DNA of 50,939 nucleotides from Bacillales bacterium (GTDB lineage Bacteria; Bacillota_I; Bacilli_A; RF39; UBA660): contig JAEEZV010000044.1 in NCBI GenBank assembly GCA_016291995.1, positions 1-50,939 of the forward strand. The letters are read 5' to 3'. The translations under genes were made by a program, and so were the position numbers. Position 1 is the first letter of the stretch. Each line of letters starts with the position of its first letter. This document shows positions 4,353-39,765 of the stretch, piece after piece. The notes under the pieces are model-generated. The model saw nothing but the letters and a program-made list of their open reading frames with translations. It was not told the origin of the DNA and did no database searches.

Positions 4353-5319
4353 ATACTAATATAAGATATGCATAATAGATAATAAAGATTGTTATCATGA
4401 TTAGACCTTCTGTTTTATCAATCTTTTTATCATCTTTAGCAAAGATATAGATAAGAAGTCCTGCAATTATCATTATTATCATATCATATGAATTAAAGCT
4501 TGGAGTACTAAATCCACCAAATATTAAGACTGGTAAGGTTAATACAAAACCAATATTAAAGATATTTGTACCAACGATATTACCAATAATAATATCAAAT
4601 TCATCTTTCTTAACAGCAGTTACAGCCATAATTAATTCTGGAGTAGATGTACCAACTACTAGAATAACCATTGTAATAATCTTTTGACTTACATGCATTG
4701 CTTCGGCAATGTTGACACAGTTAGTAACAGCAAGTTCACTACCAATAGCAATAAATGCTAAACCTAATAATGAATAGAATATTGATTTAGAAAGATTCCA
4801 TTTTGGTTTTTCTTTTTCTAAGAATAATTTAAAAATATTTTTACTTTGTTGTTCTTTGGCATATTTATATGTATAGTATACAAAATATCCAAACAATAAG
4901 AACATGATTAGGGCATCACTTCTAGAAATAGCATTTTCAGTACCATTAAATGGTCCATCTAAGAACAATATAGCAAATATTGTTATAAGTAATAAGTGAA
5001 GGGGTAATTGTTTTTTTACTGTTTCACTTTTTATTTTCATTGATTTGACCATGGCAGCTACACCAATTACTAACATTGTATTAACAATTGTTGAACCAAC
5101 GACATTAGCCATGACTATATCATTATTGCCATTTAATAAGCTTTTAAATGAAATGAATAATTCGGGTGTGCTTGTACCAAAGGCAACGACAGTTAACGAA
5201 ACAATTAGTTTTGGTACTTTGATGTTATGGGCAAATGATGAAATACCATCTACGAATAAATCAGAACCCTTGATAAGTAAGTAAAAACCAATAAATGTAA
5301 GAATAATGAATTTAATCAT
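4351..5319 (-). CDS. Calcium/sodium (cation) antiporter, CaCA / YrbG family
   Basis: About 10 TM segments with two alpha-repeat signatures, FGTSTPELFIS and VGTSTPELIMA. Confidence 0.8.
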   Translation of the reverse strand: MIKFIILTFIGFYLLIKGSDLFVDGISSFAHNIKVPKLIVSLTVVAFGTSTPELFISFKSLLNGNNDIVMANVVGSTIVNTMLVIGVAAMVKSMKIKSETVKKQLPLHLLLITIFAILFLDGPFNGTENAISRSDALIMFLLFGYFVYYTYKYAKEQQSKNIFKLFLEKEKPKWNLSKSIFYSLLGLAFIAIGSELAVTNCVNIAEAMHVSQKIITMVILVVGTSTPELIMAVTAVKKDEFDIIIGNIVGTNIFNIGFVLTLPVLIFGGFSTPSFNSYDMIIMIIAGLLIYIFAKDDKKIDKTEGLIMITIFIIYYAYLILV

Positions 5320-5373
5320 ACTGCCACCTCTTTACTCTAATAAAATAATAACAAAAAAGTGTTATAAATGCAA

Positions 5374-5400
5374 GAAAAAAAGTACTATTCGTACTTTTTT
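5374..5400 (-). terminator. Weak A/T-rich intrinsic terminator after the FAD-protein gene
   Basis: On the minus strand: AAAAAAGTAC-gaata-GTACTTTTTTT. The stop codon lies in the stem. Confidence 0.4.
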
Positions 5401-6779
5401 AGAATGTCTTTAGCAGCTACTAAACCAGTGGCAGCAGCAGTAACAATATTACCTGCTTTACCAGCTCCATCACCGATAAAGTATACGTTATCATCTTTTA
5501 GTTTGAAATTATTATCTGTTTCTATTTCGTTTGAGAAGAATTTTATTTCTGGACCATATAATAATGTATCATCATTATTGACACCAGGAATTATTTTATC
5601 TAGTGTTTCTAATCCTTCCAAGATATTAGTGATAATACGATGTGGCATTACTAATGCTAAGTCTCCAGCGACACAATCTTTTAATGTTGGTTCAATGAAA
5701 CCTTTATCAATTCTATGCCATTCACTACGTCTTCCACCACGAAGATCTTTCAAACTTTGAATGATTGGTTTACCATCGCCTAGAACGTTAGCTATTCTAG
5801 CAATAGATTCACCATATAATCTTGTATTAGTAACTGGTTCTGTTAAATTTATTTTAGAAATAAATGCAAAGTTAGTATTATTTGATTTAGTTTCTTTTAG
5901 GGCATGCCCATTGACACAGATATAACCATAATAATTTTCTTTAGTAACAAATCCGCCTGGATTAGTACAGAAGGTTCTTATTTCATCACCATATGTCTTA
6001 GTCTTAATAAATATTGTTGGATCATAAATAATATTAGTCAAGTCTTCCATAATATCTTTTCTTACTTCGATTCTAACACCAATTTCAATTGATTGAGAGT
6101 TATATGGAATTTTATATTTATCAGCAAATTCTTGAACCCATTTAGCTCCAGTTCTACCAGGAGCAACGATTACTTCTTTAGCAGTATATACTTTTTCTTT
6201 ACCTTTTAAATTGCATATTACTTCGTGATTTAATTTATCTTTGGTATTTATATCTAAAACATCACACTTGTCAACTAGAGTTACGCCTTTTTCTTTTAAG
6301 TAATCACAAATACCATCAATATATTCAGGTAAATGATCAGAACCTAAATGTTTTTGTTTAATGATTAATAATTTAGCTCCGGCAATAGCAACTTCTTTTT
6401 GAATTGCTTTAGCTTCATCCATATTAGATGGATATACTTCAGCATCCATTTTAAAACTATTAAATATTTCTTCAGTCTCATCTATTAATTTCATAGCTTG
6501 TGATTCTGACATATATTTAGTTAAATCTGATTTACCTAATTTATGAATATAATTTAGTTTACCATCAGAGAATGTTCCTGCGCCACCATATCCTGATAGG
6601 ATATTACATGGATTACAGTTTTGACAAGGAATACCTAGTTTATTCATAGGACATACTCTTGTTTTGACAGCGTTACCACGATCTAAAATAGCAATCTTTA
6701 ATTTTTTGTTTTCGCTTATTAATTTATAAGCAGCAAATAGTCCGGCAGGACCGGCTCCGACAATTATGATGTCATACAT
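5385..6779 (-). CDS. FAD-dependent oxidoreductase (COG2509-like, uncharacterized dehydrogenase)
   Basis: Rossmann motif MYDIIIVGAGPAGLFAA at the N-terminus and C-terminal GDGAGKAGNIVTAAATG. The preferred start is the ATG at 6779, preceded by GGTGG. The track start at 6791 is a TTG. Confidence 0.75.
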   Translation of the reverse strand: MYDIIIVGAGPAGLFAAYKLISENKKLKIAILDRGNAVKTRVCPMNKLGIPCQNCNPCNILSGYGGAGTFSDGKLNYIHKLGKSDLTKYMSESQAMKLIDETEEIFNSFKMDAEVYPSNMDEAKAIQKEVAIAGAKLLIIKQKHLGSDHLPEYIDGICDYLKEKGVTLVDKCDVLDINTKDKLNHEVICNLKGKEKVYTAKEVIVAPGRTGAKWVQEFADKYKIPYNSQSIEIGVRIEVRKDIMEDLTNIIYDPTIFIKTKTYGDEIRTFCTNPGGFVTKENYYGYICVNGHALKETKSNNTNFAFISKINLTEPVTNTRLYGESIARIANVLGDGKPIIQSLKDLRGGRRSEWHRIDKGFIEPTLKDCVAGDLALVMPHRIITNILEGLETLDKIIPGVNNDDTLLYGPEIKFFSNEIETDNNFKLKDDNVYFIGDGAGKAGNIVTAAATGLVAAKDILKKYE

Positions 6780-6807
6780 TTTAACCACCAAGAAAATTAT
6801 AACATAA

Positions 6808-6836
6808 ATAAAAAAATAAAGTCAATTAAGACTTTA
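6808..6836 (-). terminator. Intrinsic terminator of mutS
   Basis: On the minus strand: TAAAGTC-ttaatt-GACTTTA followed by TTTTTTT. The mutS stop codon sits in the loop. Confidence 0.6.
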
Positions 6837-9360
6837 TTTTATTCTTAAGTTCATATAAGACATTAATAGCTTCCATTGGGGTTAATTCTAAGACGTTTAA
6901 TTCTTTTATTTTTTCTTCGACTTCACTTTTTTCATCTTTAAAGTCTAGTGGAAGAGTAGTTTGAATAATAACGTCTCTTTTCTTTTCTTTACTTTCATAA
7001 ACATTTAGTATTTCAGTAGCTCTATCAGTAACTTCTTTTGGTAGGTTAGCTAATTTGGCAACATTGATACCATAACTTTTATCGACACTACCATCTTTTA
7101 CTTTATGTAAGAATGTTATTTTACCATCTTTTTCTTCAGCACTGACGTGTTTATTCTTTAGTTTATCTAGAGTATTTTCTAGATCAGTAAGTTCATGATA
7201 GTGAGTAGAAAACAATGTCTTACAAGCTATTTTATTATTGATATATTCGAGAATAGCTTGAGCTAGGCTCATACCATCAAACGTAGCAGTACCTCTACCT
7301 AATTCATCAAATAGAATTAAACTATCAGGGGTAGCATTTTTAATAGCATCAGCAGCTTCGGTCATTTCGACCATAAATGTTGATTCACCACTGACAAGAT
7401 CATCACTTGCTCCGATACGAGTAAATATTTTATCAAAGATTGGAAGAGTGGCTTTTTTAGCTGGAACATATGAACCAATTTGAGCCATTATAACAATTAT
7501 TCCAAGAGTACGCATATATGTTGATTTACCAGCCATGTTAGGACCAGTAATAAGTAAGATAGATGTTTTTTCATCCATAACGATATCGTTAGGAATATAA
7601 TCTTCTTTAATTACTTTTTCTACGACTGGATGTCTAGCTTCAAGAATATTTACATTATGTTTATCAGTTAGGGTAGGTCTTGTAAAATTGTATTTTTCTG
7701 ATACGAGAGCAAAAGATGATAAGACGTCTAGAACACTAACCATTTTAGCAATATCTTGAATAGTATGAATATATTCTTTACATTTATCTCTAATGGAAAC
7801 AAATAATTCATATTCTAGATTTATTATTTTTTCTTCAGCAGATAATACTAAATCTTCTTTTTCTTTTAAGATGGGATTTATAAATCTTTCACAATTGGTT
7901 AGAGTTTGTTTTCTGATATAACCAAATCCATCTTTGATAAGTGAAAGATTACCTTTAGATATTTCTATATAGTAACCAAATACTTTATTAAAGCCAACTT
8001 TTAGATTTTTGATACCTGTTCTTTCTCTTTCTTCGGCTTCATAGTTACTTATAAATTCTTTACCACCACTACGAAGATCTTTTAATTCATCTAATTCTTT
8101 GTTATAACCGGTTTTGATTAGATATCCTTCTTTTAGGGTAGCAGGAGGTTCTTCATAGATAGAACTTTCTAGTAAATTATATAAATCACTTACATCAGGA
8201 AATTCTTTATATTTTATTTTTTTAGATATTTCGTTAATATTTGGCAATAGTTTTAAAGATTCTTTTAGTTGAAGAAGATCTTTAGCGTTAGCAGTACCTA
8301 AGGCTATTCTTCCACATAATCTTTCTAAGTCATATACTTCATATAGATATCTACGTAGCTCTTCACTTAGAATGAATTCATCTAGAAGAGTACCGACAAG
8401 GGTATATCTTTTTTCTATTTCTTCTTTATCTTTTAATGGATTTTCAATCCATGATTTCAATAATCTTCCTCCCATAGCTGTTTTAGTTTCATCTAAAAGC
8501 CATAATAAGGAATACATTTTTTCTTTGTTACGGATACTTTCAGTAAGTTCAAGATTTCTTTTTGTATGAACATCCATTTTTAAGTATTCATTATTTTTTC
8601 TAATTACTACTTTTTGGAAGTGAGTAATATTTCTTCTTAAATTATTGATTAGATAGTATATTAAGTGTTTGATACCAATATGATATCTACTATCAGTAAT
8701 ATCTTCATATATGTATTTGTAGGTGTCTTCTTCATATAGATTATCAGTATAGGTTATTGGTAATTTATATGTATTTTTAAGTATTGATATTAAGTCTTTA
8801 TTGATATTATTGTTGACAATTAATTCTTTGATACCTAAGAAAAGTATTTTGTTAATAATGATATCATTATCTGGTTCTAATGCTTCAGAATATATTTCAC
8901 CAGTTGTAATATCACTATATGTTAGGATATAGCAGTATTCTAGTGAATATAAGCTAGCAATATAGTTATTTTCTTTTTCATTTAAGGAGTTAGCTCCGAC
9001 GACTGAACCAGATGATATTACTTCAGTTATATCTCTGTCGACGATACCTTTAGCTGTTTTAGGATCTTCAAGTTGTTCACAGATAGCTACTTTATATCCT
9101 TTTTTGATTAATTTATCAATGTAGATATCGACCGCATGATAAGGAACACCACACATGGGAACTCTTTCATCTAATCCAGCATTTCTACCTGTTAGAGTCA
9201 GTTCTAATTCGTGACTAACTAATTCAGCATCTTCGAAAAACATTTCGTAAAAGTCACCTAAACGATAGAGAATGATGGTATCCATATTTTTTTCTTTTAG
9301 GTTTACATAGTGGGCCATCATTGGTGCCAATTTGCTTTTATCTACTTCACATAACTTCAT
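6826..9360 (-). CDS. mutS: DNA mismatch repair protein MutS
   Basis: N-terminal TPMMAHY...DFYEMFFEDA mismatch-binding domain. Walker A GPNMAGKST, GESTFMVEM, DELGRGT and HYHELT motifs. The start is set at MKLCEV (9360); the upstream 17 codons of the track ORF look like read-through. Confidence 0.95.
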   Translation of the reverse strand: MKLCEVDKSKLAPMMAHYVNLKEKNMDTIILYRLGDFYEMFFEDAELVSHELELTLTGRNAGLDERVPMCGVPYHAVDIYIDKLIKKGYKVAICEQLEDPKTAKGIVDRDITEVISSGSVVGANSLNEKENNYIASLYSLEYCYILTYSDITTGEIYSEALEPDNDIIINKILFLGIKELIVNNNINKDLISILKNTYKLPITYTDNLYEEDTYKYIYEDITDSRYHIGIKHLIYYLINNLRRNITHFQKVVIRKNNEYLKMDVHTKRNLELTESIRNKEKMYSLLWLLDETKTAMGGRLLKSWIENPLKDKEEIEKRYTLVGTLLDEFILSEELRRYLYEVYDLERLCGRIALGTANAKDLLQLKESLKLLPNINEISKKIKYKEFPDVSDLYNLLESSIYEEPPATLKEGYLIKTGYNKELDELKDLRSGGKEFISNYEAEERERTGIKNLKVGFNKVFGYYIEISKGNLSLIKDGFGYIRKQTLTNCERFINPILKEKEDLVLSAEEKIINLEYELFVSIRDKCKEYIHTIQDIAKMVSVLDVLSSFALVSEKYNFTRPTLTDKHNVNILEARHPVVEKVIKEDYIPNDIVMDEKTSILLITGPNMAGKSTYMRTLGIIVIMAQIGSYVPAKKATLPIFDKIFTRIGASDDLVSGESTFMVEMTEAADAIKNATPDSLILFDELGRGTATFDGMSLAQAILEYINNKIACKTLFSTHYHELTDLENTLDKLKNKHVSAEEKDGKITFLHKVKDGSVDKSYGINVAKLANLPKEVTDRATEILNVYESKEKKRDVIIQTTLPLDFKDEKSEVEEKIKELNVLELTPMEAINVLYELKNKIKS

Positions 9361-35141: not shown

Positions 35142-35162
35142 ACTACTTAGGTAGTCTTTTTC
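35140..35162 (+). terminator. Intrinsic terminator
   Basis: AGACTAC-ttag-GTAGTCT followed by TTTT. Confidence 0.7.
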
Positions 35163-35231
35163 TTACGAAAACTGTGTAATCTATTGACTACGTAAAATTT
35201 TTGTAGTATATTGAATACAAGGAGATAAAAA

Positions 35232-35489
35232 ATGAAAAAAAATAATGAGATTGAGAGTGCTTTAGATTTAGAATACAATTTAATATGTGATTTTGTTAAA
35301 TTGAGGGGGGAATTAGGGCTTACACAACAGCAGATGGCTGATGAAAGCGGTATAGTTAGGGAAATGATTGCGGTAATTGAAAATAGAAAGAAACATCCAC
35401 AAATTAATACTTTAATTAAAATATTAGCTCCATTTGGATATACATTATCAATTACCAAAATAAAGGATGGTGAAGATTATAAAAAATAG
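35232..35489 (+). CDS. XRE-family helix-turn-helix transcriptional regulator
   Basis: 85 aa with LRGELGLTQQQMADESGIVREMIAVIENRKKHPQINTLIKIL, a classic Cro/CI HTH. RBS AAGGAG. Confidence 0.75.
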   Translation: MKKNNEIESALDLEYNLICDFVKLRGELGLTQQQMADESGIVREMIAVIENRKKHPQINTLIKILAPFGYTLSITKIKDGEDYKK

Positions 35490-36315
35490 TAAAATTATTG
35501 TATTAGATACCAATGTATCTATTGTTAGTTTAAATAATGAAGATTATATTTGTATTTCTGATTTTGCTAAGCAAAAACAGGGAAAATCAAAATCTGATGA
35601 TGTAATTAAAAACTGGCTAAGGAATAGATATACTTTGGAATTTTTGTCTACATGGGAAATACTAAATAATTCAAACTTTAATGCCGTCGAATCCGACGGG
35701 TTTAAAAATCAGGCTGGATTACATTCGTTCACTATAAGCGTTTCTGAGTGGGTTGAAAAGACAAATGCAATTGGAATATTTGCCAAAAAAGGAAAATATG
35801 GTGGAACATATGCACACAAAGATATAGCATTTGAGTTTGCTTCAGCAATTAGCCCAGTTTTTAAACTATATTTAATAAGGGAATTTCAAAGGTTAAAAGA
35901 ACTTGAAAATAGTAATAGGGAATGGAATGTTAAAAGATTATTATCTAAGAATAATTATTTGATTCATACTGATGCAATTAAGAATTATATATTACCTAAT
36001 GTCGATTATTTCCAAGATAGAAATTGGCTTAAATATGCTGAAGAAGCAGATATTTTAAATGTAATTATATTTCGTTCTACGGCTAAAGAATGGAGAAAAT
36101 TAAACCCTCAATTGGCTCTTAATAATAATATGAGAGATTATGCGACGATAAATGAATTAACTGTATTATCAAATTTAGAGACGCATAATGCAGAACTTAT
36201 AAAAGAGGGTAAAACTAAGGAAGAAAGATTTGATATATTAACAAAGATAGCTAAATACCAACTTTCTATATTGGATAAATCAGATGAGGTTAGGAAGATA
36301 ACAACAGAGCTATAA
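35467..36315 (+). CDS. KilA-N domain-containing protein
   Basis: N-terminal ...VSLNNEDYICISDFAKQK...VIKNWLRNRYTLEFLSTWE... and GGTYAHKDIAFEFASAISPVFKLYLIREF, typical of the KilA-N DNA-binding fold. It overlaps the XRE gene by 23 nt. The exact start is uncertain. Confidence 0.65.
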   Translation: MVKIIKNSKIIVLDTNVSIVSLNNEDYICISDFAKQKQGKSKSDDVIKNWLRNRYTLEFLSTWEILNNSNFNAVESDGFKNQAGLHSFTISVSEWVEKTNAIGIFAKKGKYGGTYAHKDIAFEFASAISPVFKLYLIREFQRLKELENSNREWNVKRLLSKNNYLIHTDAIKNYILPNVDYFQDRNWLKYAEEADILNVIIFRSTAKEWRKLNPQLALNNNMRDYATINELTVLSNLETHNAELIKEGKTKEERFDILTKIAKYQLSILDKSDEVRKITTEL

Positions 36316-36748: not shown

Positions 36749-37088
36749 AATATCAGGACAAACGCTGAGTACTTGTACTTAGAGGAAAGTCCACACTCGC
36801 ACTATCTGTGATGGTAGTAGTGTTTGTGCATAGGGAAAAAATAACCTATGGCAGGAAACTGACGGCGTTTAGTTAGTCTAAGGGTAACTATGATTAACTA
36901 GACATAAAGTGCCACAGTGACGATGCTATTTAGAAATAAATAGAGTGAAACGGGTAAACCCCACAAGCGAGAAACCCAAATTATGGTAGGGGAACTATCT
37001 TTTGAGAATTAGAATTGAAAGATGGATAGGTAACTATAGATAAATGTTTGTCGCCTTTTTAGGTACAGAATGTGGCTTATATGATATT
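36749..37088 (+). ncRNA. rnpB: RNase P RNA, bacterial type B (compact, about 340 nt)
   Basis: Universal and type-B blocks are present: GAGGAAAGTCCACACTCGC, AGTGCCACAGTGACG, CGGGTAAACCCCACAAGCGAGAAACCCAAAT, GGTAGGGGAAC and ACAGAATGTGGCTTA. P1 pairing joins AATATCAG near 36748 with ATGATATT near 37081. The ends are accurate to about 10 nt. Confidence 0.9.
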
Positions 37089-37115: not shown

Positions 37116-37580
37116 ATGAAAGATATAGGTTTAAAACTAAAAGAAAAAAGGGAAGAAAACGGCGTCTCGGTAGAAGAAGCTGCTGAAGACCTTAAGATGA
37201 GACCAAGTCAAATCATTAGCTTAGAGGACGGGAAGAAAGAAGACTTTAAAGATGTACTTTCTTTAAAATACTTTATTCGTGATTATGCAAAATATTTAGG
37301 ACTAGATGGAGAAAAAATGGTTGATGAATTCAATGAATTTTTGTTTGATTATACTTCAAAGATTCCGATTAATGAGATAGAGAAGGCAAAAGAAAAAAAT
37401 AAAACAGAAAAAGAATTTGCATCACCATATACGAAAGCGAAGAAAAGTAATAATGGGAAGACAGTATTAATTGTAAGCGTTCTACTTGTTTTAGTATTTG
37501 TATGTGTATACTTTGTTGTAAGTCATATTACAAGAAGTGATTTTAGAGATGATAATATAACATATGTTATAAGGAGGTAA
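37116..37580 (+). CDS. RodZ-like HTH membrane protein (short form)
   Basis: N-terminal XRE-type HTH (IGLKLKEKREENGVSVEEAAEDLKMRPSQIISLEDG), YFIRDYAKYLGLD and a single TM segment. There is almost no extracellular domain. Its position upstream of pgsA matches ymfM/rodZ. Confidence 0.65.
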   Translation: MKDIGLKLKEKREENGVSVEEAAEDLKMRPSQIISLEDGKKEDFKDVLSLKYFIRDYAKYLGLDGEKMVDEFNEFLFDYTSKIPINEIEKAKEKNKTEKEFASPYTKAKKSNNGKTVLIVSVLLVLVFVCVYFVVSHITRSDFRDDNITYVIRR

Positions 37581-37582
37581 CA

Positions 37583-38182
37583 ATGAATTTAGCTAACAAA
37601 ATAACTGTGTCAAGGATAATACTTTCAATTATTATTTTGATTATACTACTATTTCCTTGGCATCAAGTAGGCATTGATATGCCAACATATTTAGTGAAAG
37701 GAAACATAGTCGTAGATCTTAAGTACATAATTGCAGGTGTGTTATTTATAATTGCATCTCTAACTGATTTCTTTGATGGAAGAATAGCTAGAAAATACAA
37801 TATGGTAACTGATTTTGGTAAGATGGTAGATGCTATTAGTGATAAACTTTTAACTAATACATTAATTATCGTACTTGCTTGTGCTAATTTAGTACATCCA
37901 GTTATAGCTGTAATTATTATCGGTAGAGATATAATTGTCGATTCAATTAAGATGCTTATCGGTAATAAAGGTAAAGCAGTAGCTGCTATTGGTGTTGCTA
38001 AAGTTAAAACAGCATCACTTATGTGTGGTTTAACATTAAAGTTATTTTATGATATGCCATTCTCACTAGTATTACCACAAGTAAGAATATCTGATTATTT
38101 ACTTATTTTAGCTGCAGTATTATCAATTGTATCTGGTGCTAAATATTATATGATGGCTAAAGATTATATAACAGAAAAATAA
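37583..38182 (+). CDS. pgsA: CDP-diacylglycerol--glycerol-3-phosphate 3-phosphatidyltransferase
   Basis: CDP-alcohol phosphatidyltransferase motif DFFDGRIARKYNMVTDFGKMVDAISDK. Confidence 0.9.
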   Translation: MNLANKITVSRIILSIIILIILLFPWHQVGIDMPTYLVKGNIVVDLKYIIAGVLFIIASLTDFFDGRIARKYNMVTDFGKMVDAISDKLLTNTLIIVLACANLVHPVIAVIIIGRDIIVDSIKMLIGNKGKAVAAIGVAKVKTASLMCGLTLKLFYDMPFSLVLPQVRISDYLLILAAVLSIVSGAKYYMMAKDYITEK

Positions 38183-38207
38183 CAGAGTTTACACTCTGTT
38201 TTTTTTA
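38182..38207 (+). terminator. Intrinsic terminator of pgsA
   Basis: ACAGAGT-ttac-ACTCTGT followed by T9. Confidence 0.8.
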
Positions 38208-38263
38208 TTGCCTAATATTCTGTTAACCCTTATAAAATAACGGTTAACTTTTGAAAATAGCAT

Positions 38264-38292
38264 TTACATTTCGACAATTTTATGATTATATT
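38264..38292 (+). promoter_or_regulatory. Putative promoter of the small-peptide (toxin-like) transcript
   Basis: TTACAT, 17 bp, TATATT. The predicted start near 38298 coincides with the first base of the left helix arm. Confidence 0.4.
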
Positions 38293-38297
38293 TTAGT

Positions 38298-38327
38298 GAG
38301 TATTTAAGTAGTTAGTGTCTGCCTCAC
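38298..38327 (+). repeat. Left arm of a long inverted repeat (5' arm of the predicted mRNA clamp)
   Basis: GAGTATTTAAGTAGTTAGTGTCTGCCTCAC is complementary to 38492-38522. The four substitutions are all transitions that give G-U pairs in + strand RNA, and there is one 1-nt bulge. Confidence 0.7.
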
Positions 38328-38362
38328 TTTCATTCTGATGAATAGAGAGGAGGCTTGATAGA

Positions 38363-38455
38363 ATGAAAAAAAGAATTTTTGTGGTAAAAATTCTCAAGTA
38401 CATTACTATCATTTTGTCACTTTTATTAGCGATAATAATAGTTATAAAAAAATGA
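38363..38455 (+). CDS. Unannotated 30-aa hydrophobic peptide, candidate type I toxin
   Basis: MKKRIFVVKILKYITIILSLLLAIIIVIKK. The SD GAGAGGAGG (38345-38353) lies 9 nt upstream of the ATG. It has a single TM-length hydrophobic core with Lys/Arg at both ends. It is below the length cut-off of the ORF track. Confidence 0.5.
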   Translation: MKKRIFVVKILKYITIILSLLLAIIIVIKK

Positions 38456-38480
38456 CACTAGTCATAATCGACTAATGTCA
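38446..38480 (-). terminator. Minus-strand intrinsic terminator inside the intergenic locus
   Basis: On the minus strand: UGACAUUAGUC-gauuau-GACUAGUGUCA followed by U7. The single non-Watson-Crick position is G-U on the minus-strand RNA but C-A on the plus strand, and no U-run follows it on the plus strand. Confidence 0.6.
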
Positions 38481-38491
38481 ACCCACAATTT

Positions 38492-38522
38492 GTGAGGCAG
38501 ACATTTAATTATTTAAATGCTC
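38492..38522 (+). repeat. Right arm of the long inverted repeat (3' arm of the predicted mRNA clamp)
   Basis: GTGAGGCAGACATTTAATTATTTAAATGCTC, followed by TAATTTTTATTAT. Together with the left arm it could act as the + strand transcript end. Confidence 0.7.
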
Positions 38523-38558
38523 TAATTTTTATTATATGAGAGTTCCCTCAACACATAC

Positions 38559-38587
38559 ATTATATAATAAAAATATGAATTATTCAA
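38559..38587 (-). promoter_or_regulatory. Minus-strand promoter for the candidate antisense RNA
   Basis: Read on the minus strand: TTGAAT (38587-38582), 17 bp, TATAAT (38564-38559). No minus-strand ORF lies downstream. Confidence 0.5.
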
Positions 38588-38614
38588 TATTTAGTAGATA
38601 TTTCTTTAAAAAAT

Positions 38615-38623
38615 TGGTATAAT
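38615..38623 (+). promoter_or_regulatory. Extended -10 element (TGgTATAAT) upstream of 38647
   Basis: TG at 38615-38616 and TATAAT at 38618-38623, followed by AGAGGAAGAG and the ATG at 38647. Confidence 0.5.
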
Positions 38624-38646
38624 TTAATTAGAAATAGAGGAAGAGT

Positions 38647-39765
38647 ATGGAAAATAAAAAGAAATATATATTCATGATTATTATAATGATGATTGCTGTT
38701 ATTCTAGTTGGTACGTATGCGTGGCTTACTTATAGGACTAATGATACGGCAATGGTACTTACAATCGGAGATATTCGTAGTGTACAAGTTACATTATCGC
38801 CATATCAAATAAAAGGCACTTTAGATGAAGTAACAACATATACTAGTGGTAAACTAACTGAGGTTGAAGCAGTCAATAATAGTACTGAATCTAAGAAATT
38901 TAAATTATATTATCAAATTAATAGTATCGATGCTTCTTTAGCTACATCTAGTTTAAAATACAAAGTTATGAGAAGTACCAATGGTTCGACATATTCAGAT
39001 TATAAGAATGGGACATTTAGTGGTACATATGCTGGTAGTAATCTTACTATTATGGAAGAAACTTTACCAGCAGGCCCTAATCTTACTTATATGTATAAAG
39101 TATATTTATGGTTAAATAGTGGAAGTAGTGGAGCTAGTGGTACGTTTGATGGAGAACTTAGAGCAGATATTGTTAATTTGCCATCACAATATCAACATGT
39201 TGAGTACATACAATTTAGTGGTACACAATATATTGATACTGGTGTATTGACAAATCAAAATCTTGAACTTGAATGTGATTTTTCTACGACGACGGCAAGT
39301 AAATTACTCTTTGGTGCAAGGGGGTCAACTTCAGCTAATGGTCTTGTTTTTGGATATTTTTCAACTACAGGTTCATATGTTGGCTTTGGTAGAGCATCTA
39401 CGAATTACTCTACGACAATGAATTTACTTAATGGTAACAGGCATATCGTTAACCTAAGTAATAGTATTTATAAAATCGATGGAGTCAATCAAACGATAAA
39501 TAATAGGGGAACATTATCGCAGTACTATAATATATATTTGGGAACTTGGAATACAGCAAATGTAGCCGATGATCGTCGTTATGTAGGCAAAGTATATAGT
39601 TTTAAGATATCTAATAATGGTGTATTAGTAAGAAATTATGTGCCATGTTACGATAAAAATCAACCAATAACCGGTGGTTATAAAGCAGGATTTTGTGATC
39701 TTGTAAGCAATACATTTTTTGGTAATTCTGGTACTGGAGAATTCACATATGGTAATGCAATTTAA
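38647..39765 (+). CDS. Secreted or anchored protein with a TasA/camelysin-type (SipW-cognate-like) N-terminus and a C-terminal lectin / tail-fibre-like module
   Basis: The N-terminus KKKYIFMIIIMMIAVILVGTYAWLTYRTND resembles the GTYAYF(T/S)D class of signal peptides. The C-terminal half begins LPSQYQHVEYIQFSGTQYIDTG and ends VPCYDKNQ...GFCDLVSNTFFGNSGTGEFTYG, a module I recognise from phage or surface proteins of unknown function. Confidence 0.55.
   Translation: MENKKKYIFMIIIMMIAVILVGTYAWLTYRTNDTAMVLTIGDIRSVQVTLSPYQIKGTLDEVTTYTSGKLTEVEAVNNSTESKKFKLYYQINSIDASLATSSLKYKVMRSTNGSTYSDYKNGTFSGTYAGSNLTIMEETLPAGPNLTYMYKVYLWLNSGSSGASGTFDGELRADIVNLPSQYQHVEYIQFSGTQYIDTGVLTNQNLELECDFSTTTASKLLFGARGSTSANGLVFGYFSTTGSYVGFGRASTNYSTTMNLLNGNRHIVNLSNSIYKIDGVNQTINNRGTLSQYYNIYLGTWNTANVADDRRYVGKVYSFKISNNGVLVRNYVPCYDKNQPITGGYKAGFCDLVSNTFFGNSGTGEFTYGNAI

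Follow-up and report, generated by a model that had tools for sequence, protein, structure and literature searches.

A probable chromosomal type I toxin-antitoxin cassette with bsrG/SR4-like RNA architecture downstream of pgsA in an uncultured member of the Bacilli

Type I toxin-antitoxin modules are almost never annotated and, to our knowledge, those described come mainly from model Proteobacteria and a small number of Firmicutes. Here, we analyse a 50,939-nucleotide (nt) stretch of DNA from a Bacillales bacterium (contig JAEEZV010000044.1 of assembly GCA_016291995.1; hereafter the window), in which the gap between pgsA (37583-38182) and the next gene (38647-39765) is the site of a compact cassette that resembles such modules. 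The Gram-positive families summarised in T1TAdb are Fst, TxpA, YonT, SprA1, SprG and BsrE/G/H, and 5'/3' long-distance interactions and elements complementary to the Shine-Dalgarno sequence (anti-SD elements) are key features of toxin mRNAs (PMC8594479). Experimental probing of the Bacillus subtilis bsrG mRNA has shown a long helix, P1, that joins nt 1-35 to nt 232-262 and bears SL1-SL3. [quoted passage not shown] The bsrE/SR5 pair has a similar fold and a toxin of 30 amino acids (aa) (PMC6562991).

Conserved sequence signals indicate that the cassette (approximately 335-375 bp) is probably a chromosomal type I toxin-antitoxin module with the RNA architecture of bsrG/SR4. A first-pass annotation of the window, made from its letters alone, had proposed a type I module here, and its open reading frame (ORF), inverted arms, promoters and antisense terminator were all located at the positions it had given them; comparison with related copies supports the proposal on every point that is testable in silico. 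The features of the cassette are as follows.

38214-38591, no strand: rough limits of the cassette as an insertion/deletion, judged against an allele with an empty site
~38262-38592: core conserved among copies, promoter to promoter (an nhmmer profile of five copies matches window 38262-38592)
38263-38292, + strand: predicted sense (toxin) promoter TTTACA-18-TATATT (consensus scan, 10/12), with a predicted start at ~38298-38300
38298-38327, + strand: left arm, the 5' half of a long-range 'P1'-like clamp, nearly invariant in six copies
38321-38325, + strand: anti-SD GCCUC within the left arm, complementary to GGAGG plus the next C at 38349-38354
38345-38353, + strand: SD sequence GAGAGGAGG, 9 nt before the ATG, its GGAGG invariant in the five full copies
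38363-38455, + strand: 30-codon candidate toxin ORF MKKRIFVVKILKYITIILSLLLAIIIVIKK, the only ORF conserved on either strand
38453-38480, - strand: predicted antisense terminator hairpin with a T7 tract at 38452-38446, its core 9/9 paired on the - strand; its counterpart stem-loop on the mRNA begins at the stop codon and is probably where first contact is made
38492-38522, + strand: right arm, the 3' half of the clamp, lying wholly inside the antisense RNA gene and able to form a local 7-bp hairpin
38523-38535, + strand: U-rich tract UAAUUUUUAUUAU after the clamp, possibly the 3' end of the toxin mRNA
38446-38552, - strand: predicted antisense RNA (putative antitoxin) of ~107 nt, fold z-score (z) = -4.5
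38559-38587, - strand: predicted antisense promoter TTGAAT-17-TATAAT (consensus scan, 10/12)

These features were compared across five full copies of the cassette (that of the window, one at locus L007, and copies c1, c2 and c3 at locus L014) and one partial copy (L005). The window peptide is 30 residues long, with a basic MKKR N terminus and a KK C terminus; its residues 14-28 form a 15-residue hydrophobic core with a Kyte-Doolittle mean of 3.4, and its net charge is +7. It has, in other words, the general form of a type I toxin, a small ORF of about 20-60 aa that encodes a hydrophobic peptide, mostly of a single helix, with charged ends. In the other copies (MKKREYHIQVLKYLSIILSLLLAIIVVIKK in L007, MKKREYHIQVLKYITIILSPLLAVIVVIKK in L014 c2 and MKKREYNIQVLKYTSIILALLLAIKVVIKK in L014 c3), residues 14-28 are likewise very hydrophobic and flanked by basic residues, with net charges ranging from +2 to +7 across the set. 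Four of the five full copies encode exactly 30 residues, c1 lacks the stop codon and reads to 37 residues, and none of the five contains a frameshift. The ratio of nonsynonymous to synonymous change (dN/dS) is 0.10-0.22 in eight of the nine computable pairs (0.47 in the other), with synonymous sites near saturation (synonymous differences per site, pS, 0.43-0.75) against nonsynonymous values (pN) of 0.08-0.26. Differences fall at codon positions 1, 2 and 3 in the ratio 76/46/116, the third position changing most. Judged by this pattern of substitution, the 30-codon ORF is a gene under purifying selection, and the strong SD sequence that the first-pass annotation had recognised 9 nt upstream of it is conserved as well. 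A 39-aa ORF on the - strand (38293-38412) is not conserved, nor is any of the short ORFs within the antisense RNA.

The arms that enclose this ORF form a second line of evidence. In the window, the + strand RNA keeps 28/29 pairs, four of them G-U, with a 1-nt bulge, against 24/29 on the - strand, which bears out the earlier remark that the four substitutions between the arms are tolerated as G-U pairs on the peptide strand. When the segment 38298-38535 (+) was folded, as the first-pass annotation had recommended, it reached -79.6 kcal/mol (z = -10.1; 0/200 shuffles were as good), compared with -66.4 kcal/mol (z = -8.0) for the reverse strand; the L007 copy folds with z = -8.8. Across the five copies the clamp is 97.9% paired, a figure that falls to 31-42% when the partner is slid by 1-3 columns, and each copy retains 27-29/29 pairs on the + strand versus 23-24/29 on the - strand. 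Twenty pairs are invariant, seven have changed on one side and been rescued by wobble, and one has changed on both sides; pair 4/242 is seen as U-G, C-G and U-A, and pair 24/220 as G-C, G-U and A-U. Since the arm differences are G-U-compatible on one strand only, selection appears to act on the RNA rather than on DNA ends recognised by a transposase, and we read the clamp, from its retained pairing, as an RNA helix that is selected on the peptide strand. The left arm is almost invariant though nearby synonymous sites are saturated, and changes in the right arm accumulate as transitions, as might be expected if the left arm were held constant by having more than one partner to pair with. In the local hairpin of the right arm, the pair at alignment columns 228/238 reads U-A for the window and C-G for each of the four others. 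The tract that follows the clamp is U-rich in all copies, with interruptions in L014 c1 and c2.

Transcription signals are predicted on both strands. The sense promoter, which had first been given as TTACAT-17-TATATT, was scanned at the same site as TTTACA-18-TATATT; its position is conserved among the copies, and in L007 and the three L014 copies it reads TTGACT-17-TATAAT, 7 nt before the left arm, the window version being slightly weaker. The antisense promoter is found as TTGAA[AT]-16/17-TATAAT at the same position in all five copies. Promoter-like hexamers as such (20 found versus 15.7 expected) are not significant alone in DNA of 29% G+C, and they carry weight because their position is conserved in the five copies. 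Terminator-like sites, by comparison, are significant, numbering five against 0.6 expected in a scan of 37500-39500, and of the five inverted repeats of at least 22 nt, at most 400 nt apart, in the whole 51-kilobase (kb) window, three lie in the gap downstream of pgsA. The position of the antisense terminator is conserved in five of five copies. As had been claimed for the window, its hairpin is fully paired only on the - strand, with 9/9 core pairs there versus 7-8/9 on the + strand in all five copies; the U tract is likewise on the - strand only, and is templated by the AAA AAA (Lys-Lys) codons of the candidate toxin. The predicted antisense RNAs measure 104-121 nt in the five copies, and the four outside the window are predicted to fold alike, with GAGG/CCUC as the closing helix, a pair of stem-loops, an unpaired spacer and the terminator. 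In the toxin mRNA, this RNA would find its complement in the final codons, in the 3' stem-loop and right arm, and in the U tract. Judged by its sequence signals, then, the locus carries a putative antisense RNA gene with its own promoter and terminator.

The left arm may also serve as part of a translational switch. It had been suggested that its CCUC could pair either with the right arm or with the SD sequence, and both pairings are predicted for the window: the partner of GCCUC is the SD (GAGGC) in the minimum free energy fold and the right arm (GAGGC) in the centroid fold. If the stretch that the antisense RNA would cover is blocked, a 5' hairpin of approximately 13 bp is predicted in the window, L007, c2 and c3, in which GCCUC sequesters the SD. 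Pair 24/62 in this hairpin is G-C in four copies and A-U in c1 (ACCUC/GGAGGU versus GCCUC/GGAGGC), which represents a single event. In either state, codons 14-18 are the predicted partner of the AUG. Among the cis elements by which type I toxin mRNAs silence translation, the clamp is supported here; the AUG helix and the anti-SD:SD pairing, which most copies are predicted to form, vary among copies and receive no statistical support with five sequences. The specific switch mechanism, which is built on these modelled folds, is plausible.

The module would operate as follows. A sigma-A-type promoter would start an mRNA of approximately 235-250 nt at the first bases of the left arm, encoding the cationic membrane peptide of 30 residues and a single helix. 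In the predicted fold, a 29-bp helix joins the 5' end of this mRNA to its 3' untranslated region and so closes it, and the AUG is held in a second helix with codons 14-18. A convergent promoter would produce the antisense RNA of ~107 nt, ending at an intrinsic terminator and forming a perfect complement to the mRNA over its final codons and onward through the right arm. On the model of SR4, and from constrained folding, the antisense terminator loop may first contact the mRNA loop just after the stop codon, whereupon pairing would extend along the right arm and push the left arm out of the clamp; the GCCUC of the left arm, once free, could then pair with the SD (GAGGC) in the ~13-bp 5' hairpin, and translation would be blocked. 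The long RNA duplex would, again as with SR4, be cut by RNase III. Where the antisense RNA runs out, the peptide would be made and inserted in the membrane, and growth would stop or the cell would lyse.

The closest known systems, on the best reading of these modelled structures, are bsrG/SR4 and bsrE/SR5 of B. subtilis, which the cassette approaches more nearly than it does hok, aapA or tisB. The first-pass annotation had proposed a 5'/3' clamp and had likened it to the pairing in the latter three; the clamp stands as a prediction, and the comparison has to be replaced, since a clamp together with an antisense RNA overlapping the 3' end is no new blend of hok/aapA with txpA traits but the experimentally probed architecture of bsrG/SR4. 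The long 5'/3' helix of bsrG (nt 1-35/232-262) has its predicted counterpart in the 29 bp of the cassette (nt 1-29/~195-225). Also shared with bsrG/SR4 are a structured toxin mRNA (~250-300 nt), from whose long helix stem-loops branch and whose SD is within a short helix or close to one, a convergent cis-antisense RNA that overlaps the 3' end and is complementary to the 3' half of the long helix, and an antisense terminator loop that faces an mRNA loop at the stop codon. The predicted outcome, a translation block with RNase III decay, is the route taken by bsrG/SR4 and bsrE/SR5 (PMC3834814, PMC6562991). The toxins are of comparable size, with 30 aa for BsrE, 38 aa for BsrG and 30 aa for the cassette peptide, and all consist of a hydrophobic helix with C-terminal lysines. 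Unlike BsrG and BsrE, the cassette peptide also has a basic N terminus (MKKR), and no peptide similarity was detected, the BsrG sequence used in this comparison having been entered by hand and BsrE, BsrH and TxpA not having been compared directly. The antisense RNA of the cassette is shorter than SR4 and SR5 (~107 nt versus 163-183 nt) and has no match to an antitoxin family in Rfam, and the cassette has only a weak hairpin and a U-rich tract where bsrG has a separate strong terminator stem-loop after the long helix. Furthermore, bsrG belongs to prophage SPbeta and bsrE to the P6 element, whereas the cassette sits in core intergenic sites of uncultured Bacilli, with no recognisable prophage, and occurs in one case as a tandem triplet. 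The predicted folds of all five copies, set beside the probed bsrG/SR4 structures, follow that layout at nearly every point; the resemblance, as modelled, is a likeness in working and not evidence of common descent.

Other type I systems share parts of this design. With txpA/RatA of the skin element and the Clostridioides difficile modules (e.g., CD2517.1/RCd8), the cassette has in common convergent genes that overlap at their 3' ends. In those systems a small membrane toxin with a charged, lysine-rich C terminus is paired with an antisense RNA that promotes mRNA decay (PMC3531473, PMC6563280), and the candidate toxin of the cassette is likewise a small membrane peptide with such a C terminus. 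TxpA (59 aa) and the C. difficile toxins (34-59 aa) are longer, and no sequence similarity to them was found; RatA binding leaves the txpA SD helix unaltered (PMC3834814), and the C. difficile modules are linked to prophages or to clustered regularly interspaced short palindromic repeat (CRISPR) arrays (PMC6563280), links that were not seen for the cassette. A long-distance 5'/3' interaction also occurs in hok/Sok and aapA1/IsoA1, where it keeps the full-length toxin mRNA inert (PMC8594479, PMC6733600). There, however, the antisense RNA lies at the 5' side (Sok) or over the ORF (IsoA) (PMC8594479), whereas that of the cassette would target the 3' clamp arm, and these systems of Gram-negative hosts need 3' trimming for activation. 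Finally, fst/RNAII (par of pAD1) is, like the cassette, a Firmicute system of convergent RNAs meeting at their terminators, with the SD in a 5' stem-loop and a peptide of approximately 30 aa. Fst pairing makes use of 5' direct repeats (DRa/DRb) outside the overlap, and its two RNAs share a bidirectional terminator. In the cassette, by contrast, no direct repeats were found between the 5' regions, and the hairpin has a U tract on one strand only.

No relatives of the peptide were recovered by the searches of protein and literature collections. An hhalign comparison gave a probability of 0.2% with BsrG and 0.7% with Fst, both of these sequences having been entered by hand; these comparisons lend no support to placing the peptide in the BsrG/TxpA or Fst families. 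A phmmer search of 1.84 billion representative proteins yielded 0 matches, a result of little information as the self-hit of a 30-aa query is itself borderline. None of the five peptides is present in an exact look-up of approximately 15 billion predicted proteins, which indicates that they have been missed by gene callers, and a text search of the literature for the peptide strings found no match. At the gathering thresholds of Rfam 15, only RNase P was found in the window and nothing at the cassette locus; with E up to 10, the gap gave chance-level matches only and no type I antitoxin family, and a match to 'mir-2804' proved to be the pgsA terminator. The earlier suggestion of a new family holds for the peptide sequence, which matches no family, and does not extend to the RNA architecture, which is of the bsrG/SR4 design.

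The distribution of the cassette was followed from an exact look-up of the PgsA protein, which led to eight contigs. Four of these (L001-L004) have the same gap as the window with one single-nucleotide polymorphism. In L005, an identical PgsA is followed by a diverged copy, with an identical left arm and a peptide that begins MKKREYHIQVLKY, the contig ending inside the ORF. In L006, again after an identical PgsA, the site is empty and the pgsA terminator runs directly into the promoter of the next gene; hence, the cassette is an insertion or deletion of approximately 375 bp within one PgsA-identical population. No element was seen in 12 loci fetched for three PgsA relatives (82-85% identity; source label 'Bacilli bacterium'), in which 80-190 nt follow pgsA, and homologues of the downstream 372-aa protein, the best only 45% identical over the full length, did not add alleles of the locus. 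The extra copies that the first-pass annotation had recommended looking for were sought by pattern scans with the left arm, which gave one match in species-representative genomes, L007, in a metagenome-assembled genome labelled 'uncultured Clostridium sp.' and in a different context near ychF. The scans also gave one true match in metagenomes, L014, with three tandem copies at a period of ~390 bp adjoining a gene read as trmB from a sequence motif; the other six of the seven metagenome matches to the 20-mer (L008-L013) arose by chance and had no homology around them. When the five full copies were made into an nhmmer profile, it found nothing else in the 254 kb examined and one copy only in the window. 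Homology among the copies begins at the sense -35 box and ends just past the antisense -35 box, reaching beyond the left arm by 35 nt and beyond the right arm by ~70 nt. The cassette thus behaves as a dispensable, duplicating unit, being present, variant or absent at one locus, present at other loci and found as a tandem triplet.

Two of these copies have features of their own. In L014 c1 (1855-2200, - strand), the TGA stop is lost, AAAAAAATGA having become AAAAATAGA, and the ORF reads into the hairpin; the spacer between SD and start and the 5' fold also differ from those of the other copies. This copy may be a diverging or decaying paralogue. The L007 copy adjoins a 725-aa ORF (4837-7014, +) with no Pfam match, which is followed by an 88-aa ORF with a sub-threshold match to DUF1292.

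Several results weigh against a type I toxin-antitoxin module. Pfam and NCBIfam scans of the five peptides, with E up to 10, found no toxin family, Fst included, and returned only generic transmembrane noise below the cut-offs (NapE, TorE, NPXTG anchor). Searches of phages and plasmids (tblastn or blastn) and of viral contigs (pattern scans), where many type I systems are located, gave no match to the module. The copies found, as sought, in L007 and L014 bring the total to only five full copies, from approximately three independent lineages (the window; c1; and the group of L007, c2, c3 and L005), and the covariation hoped for in the arms is not significant in a shuffle control (258/500, five sequences), most clamp changes being one-sided wobble rather than double compensations. 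The case for selection on the RNA consequently rests on the retained pairing and the strand asymmetry and not on covariation statistics. The corresponding control for the SD hairpin is also not significant (89/500), and SD sequestration varies, in that c1 folds differently and the SD partner in the free mRNA differs among copies. Lastly, no canonical + strand terminator was found after the clamp by the scan, so that the 3' end of the mRNA is uncertain.

How far do other explanations account for the same observations? A non-toxic small membrane protein tuned by a cis-antisense RNA would have the same layout with no addiction or defence behaviour, and the coding ORF, the convergent antisense RNA and the structured mRNA fit it equally well; moreover, the toxicity of the peptide is purely a matter of deduction, and the peptide is without homology to proven toxins. 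Such a protein would not, however, be expected to show presence/absence polymorphism within one species-level PgsA background, to occur in three unrelated chromosomal contexts and as a tandem triplet with no partner protein gene travelling along, or to have its 5' end, its AUG and potentially its SD so heavily sequestered in the predicted folds. Presence/absence polymorphism, varied contexts and 5'-end sequestration are typical of type I toxins (PMC8594479, PMC3834814), and we consider the non-toxic protein improbable. The same polymorphism, together with the 30-nt inverted arms, the several genomic sites and the tandem copies, might instead suggest a non-coding repeat, such as a miniature inverted-repeat transposable element or a structured RNA, in which the arms are functional and the ORF incidental. 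The first-pass annotation had itself named two outcomes that would point this way, namely arms conserved without the ORF or SD, and a multicopy repeat lacking coding conservation. The ORF and SD are in fact conserved alongside the arms, and the element is multicopy with its coding conserved: the ORF is under purifying selection, with a third-position bias and a conserved length. Furthermore, homology runs past the arms and stops at the two -35 boxes, the arm differences are G-U-compatible on one strand only, and there is no clear target-site duplication, only a flanking 6-nt AATATT that is uninformative in AT-rich DNA. Such a repeat is very improbable.

The position of the cassette between two co-oriented genes, with a clamp and a U tract that could stop read-through, raises the question as to whether it is a leader, attenuator or terminator of pgsA or of the downstream 372-aa gene. 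Yet pgsA has its own strong terminator at 38181-38200, the downstream gene (promoter at 38595-38623, TG-extended) keeps its own promoter and ribosome-binding site region in the empty-site L006, and the same cassette stands beside unrelated genes in L007 and L014. Between them, the allele with the empty site and the copies found in other contexts largely refute a role for the flanking genes, which is scarcely credible. Chance as an explanation of the cassette was rejected. A type I toxin-antitoxin module is, then, the reading that we favour. A bolder version of it, which we hold to be doubtful, would see in these loci minimal type I modules of a 'promoter-to-promoter' kind that form a family so far unrecognised among uncultured gut Bacilli: an autonomous unit of ~375 bp would spread and amplify between intergenic sites of the core genome with no phage, plasmid or transposase as vehicle, and its antitoxin would act mainly as a strand-displacement switch, invading the 3' clamp arm and handing the invariant anti-SD 5' arm to the ribosome-binding site.

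The cassette is invisible to gene callers, and its hosts are uncultured Bacilli of low G+C content that are known only from metagenomes. It accounts for a presence/absence polymorphism beside the essential gene pgsA. If the toxin-antitoxin reading is correct, it would add a toxin family without sequence relatives and would offer a compact natural anti-SD switch that is testable by compensatory mutation. The RNA design of bsrG/SR4 would then recur with an unrelated peptide, suggesting convergence on the design or very deep divergence. No new class of biology is opened: the bsrG-type design is known, and the peptide family is what is new.

Two further repeats were noted in the gap. Between the pgsA terminator and the toxin promoter, a palindrome at 38222-38248 (GTTAACCCTTAT / ATAACGGTTAAC; 12-nt arms, 92% complementary, 3-nt spacer) is followed by TTTTG, and L005 has a single GTTAAC in its place; this palindrome could be an operator or an extra insulator terminator. 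An AT-rich inverted repeat of 32 nt (38506-38537 / 38562-38593, 75% complementary) has one side over the U tract and the right arm's 3' half and the other in the region of the antisense promoter, and would matter only if the sense transcript passes 38535.

The neighbourhood of the cassette is itself variable. The 372-aa gene downstream (38647-39765, +) encodes an N-terminal hydrophobic segment and has no Pfam domain. It is missing from L019-L026 (PgsA 82-85% identical), where a gene with immunoglobulin-like (Ig-like) and Amidase_3 domains directly follows pgsA, and in L015-L018 a different gene of approximately 740-810 aa does so; variation immediately behind pgsA is thus not confined to the cassette. 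Some 2 kb upstream of the cassette, a variable slot between a 408-aa gene and a DivIVA-like gene (35147-36315) holds a 103-aa ORF and a KilA-N domain protein in the window, an AbiEi/AbiEii pair in L023 (6175-8390) and L025 (254-2694), and nothing in L015 and L019. The slot resembles a second, small hot spot of accessory or defence genes. A full-length bacterial RNase P RNA of class B (36750-37084, +; 276 bits), which fits a Bacillota/Bacilli host, is flanked by the DivIVA-like gene and a RodZ-like gene.

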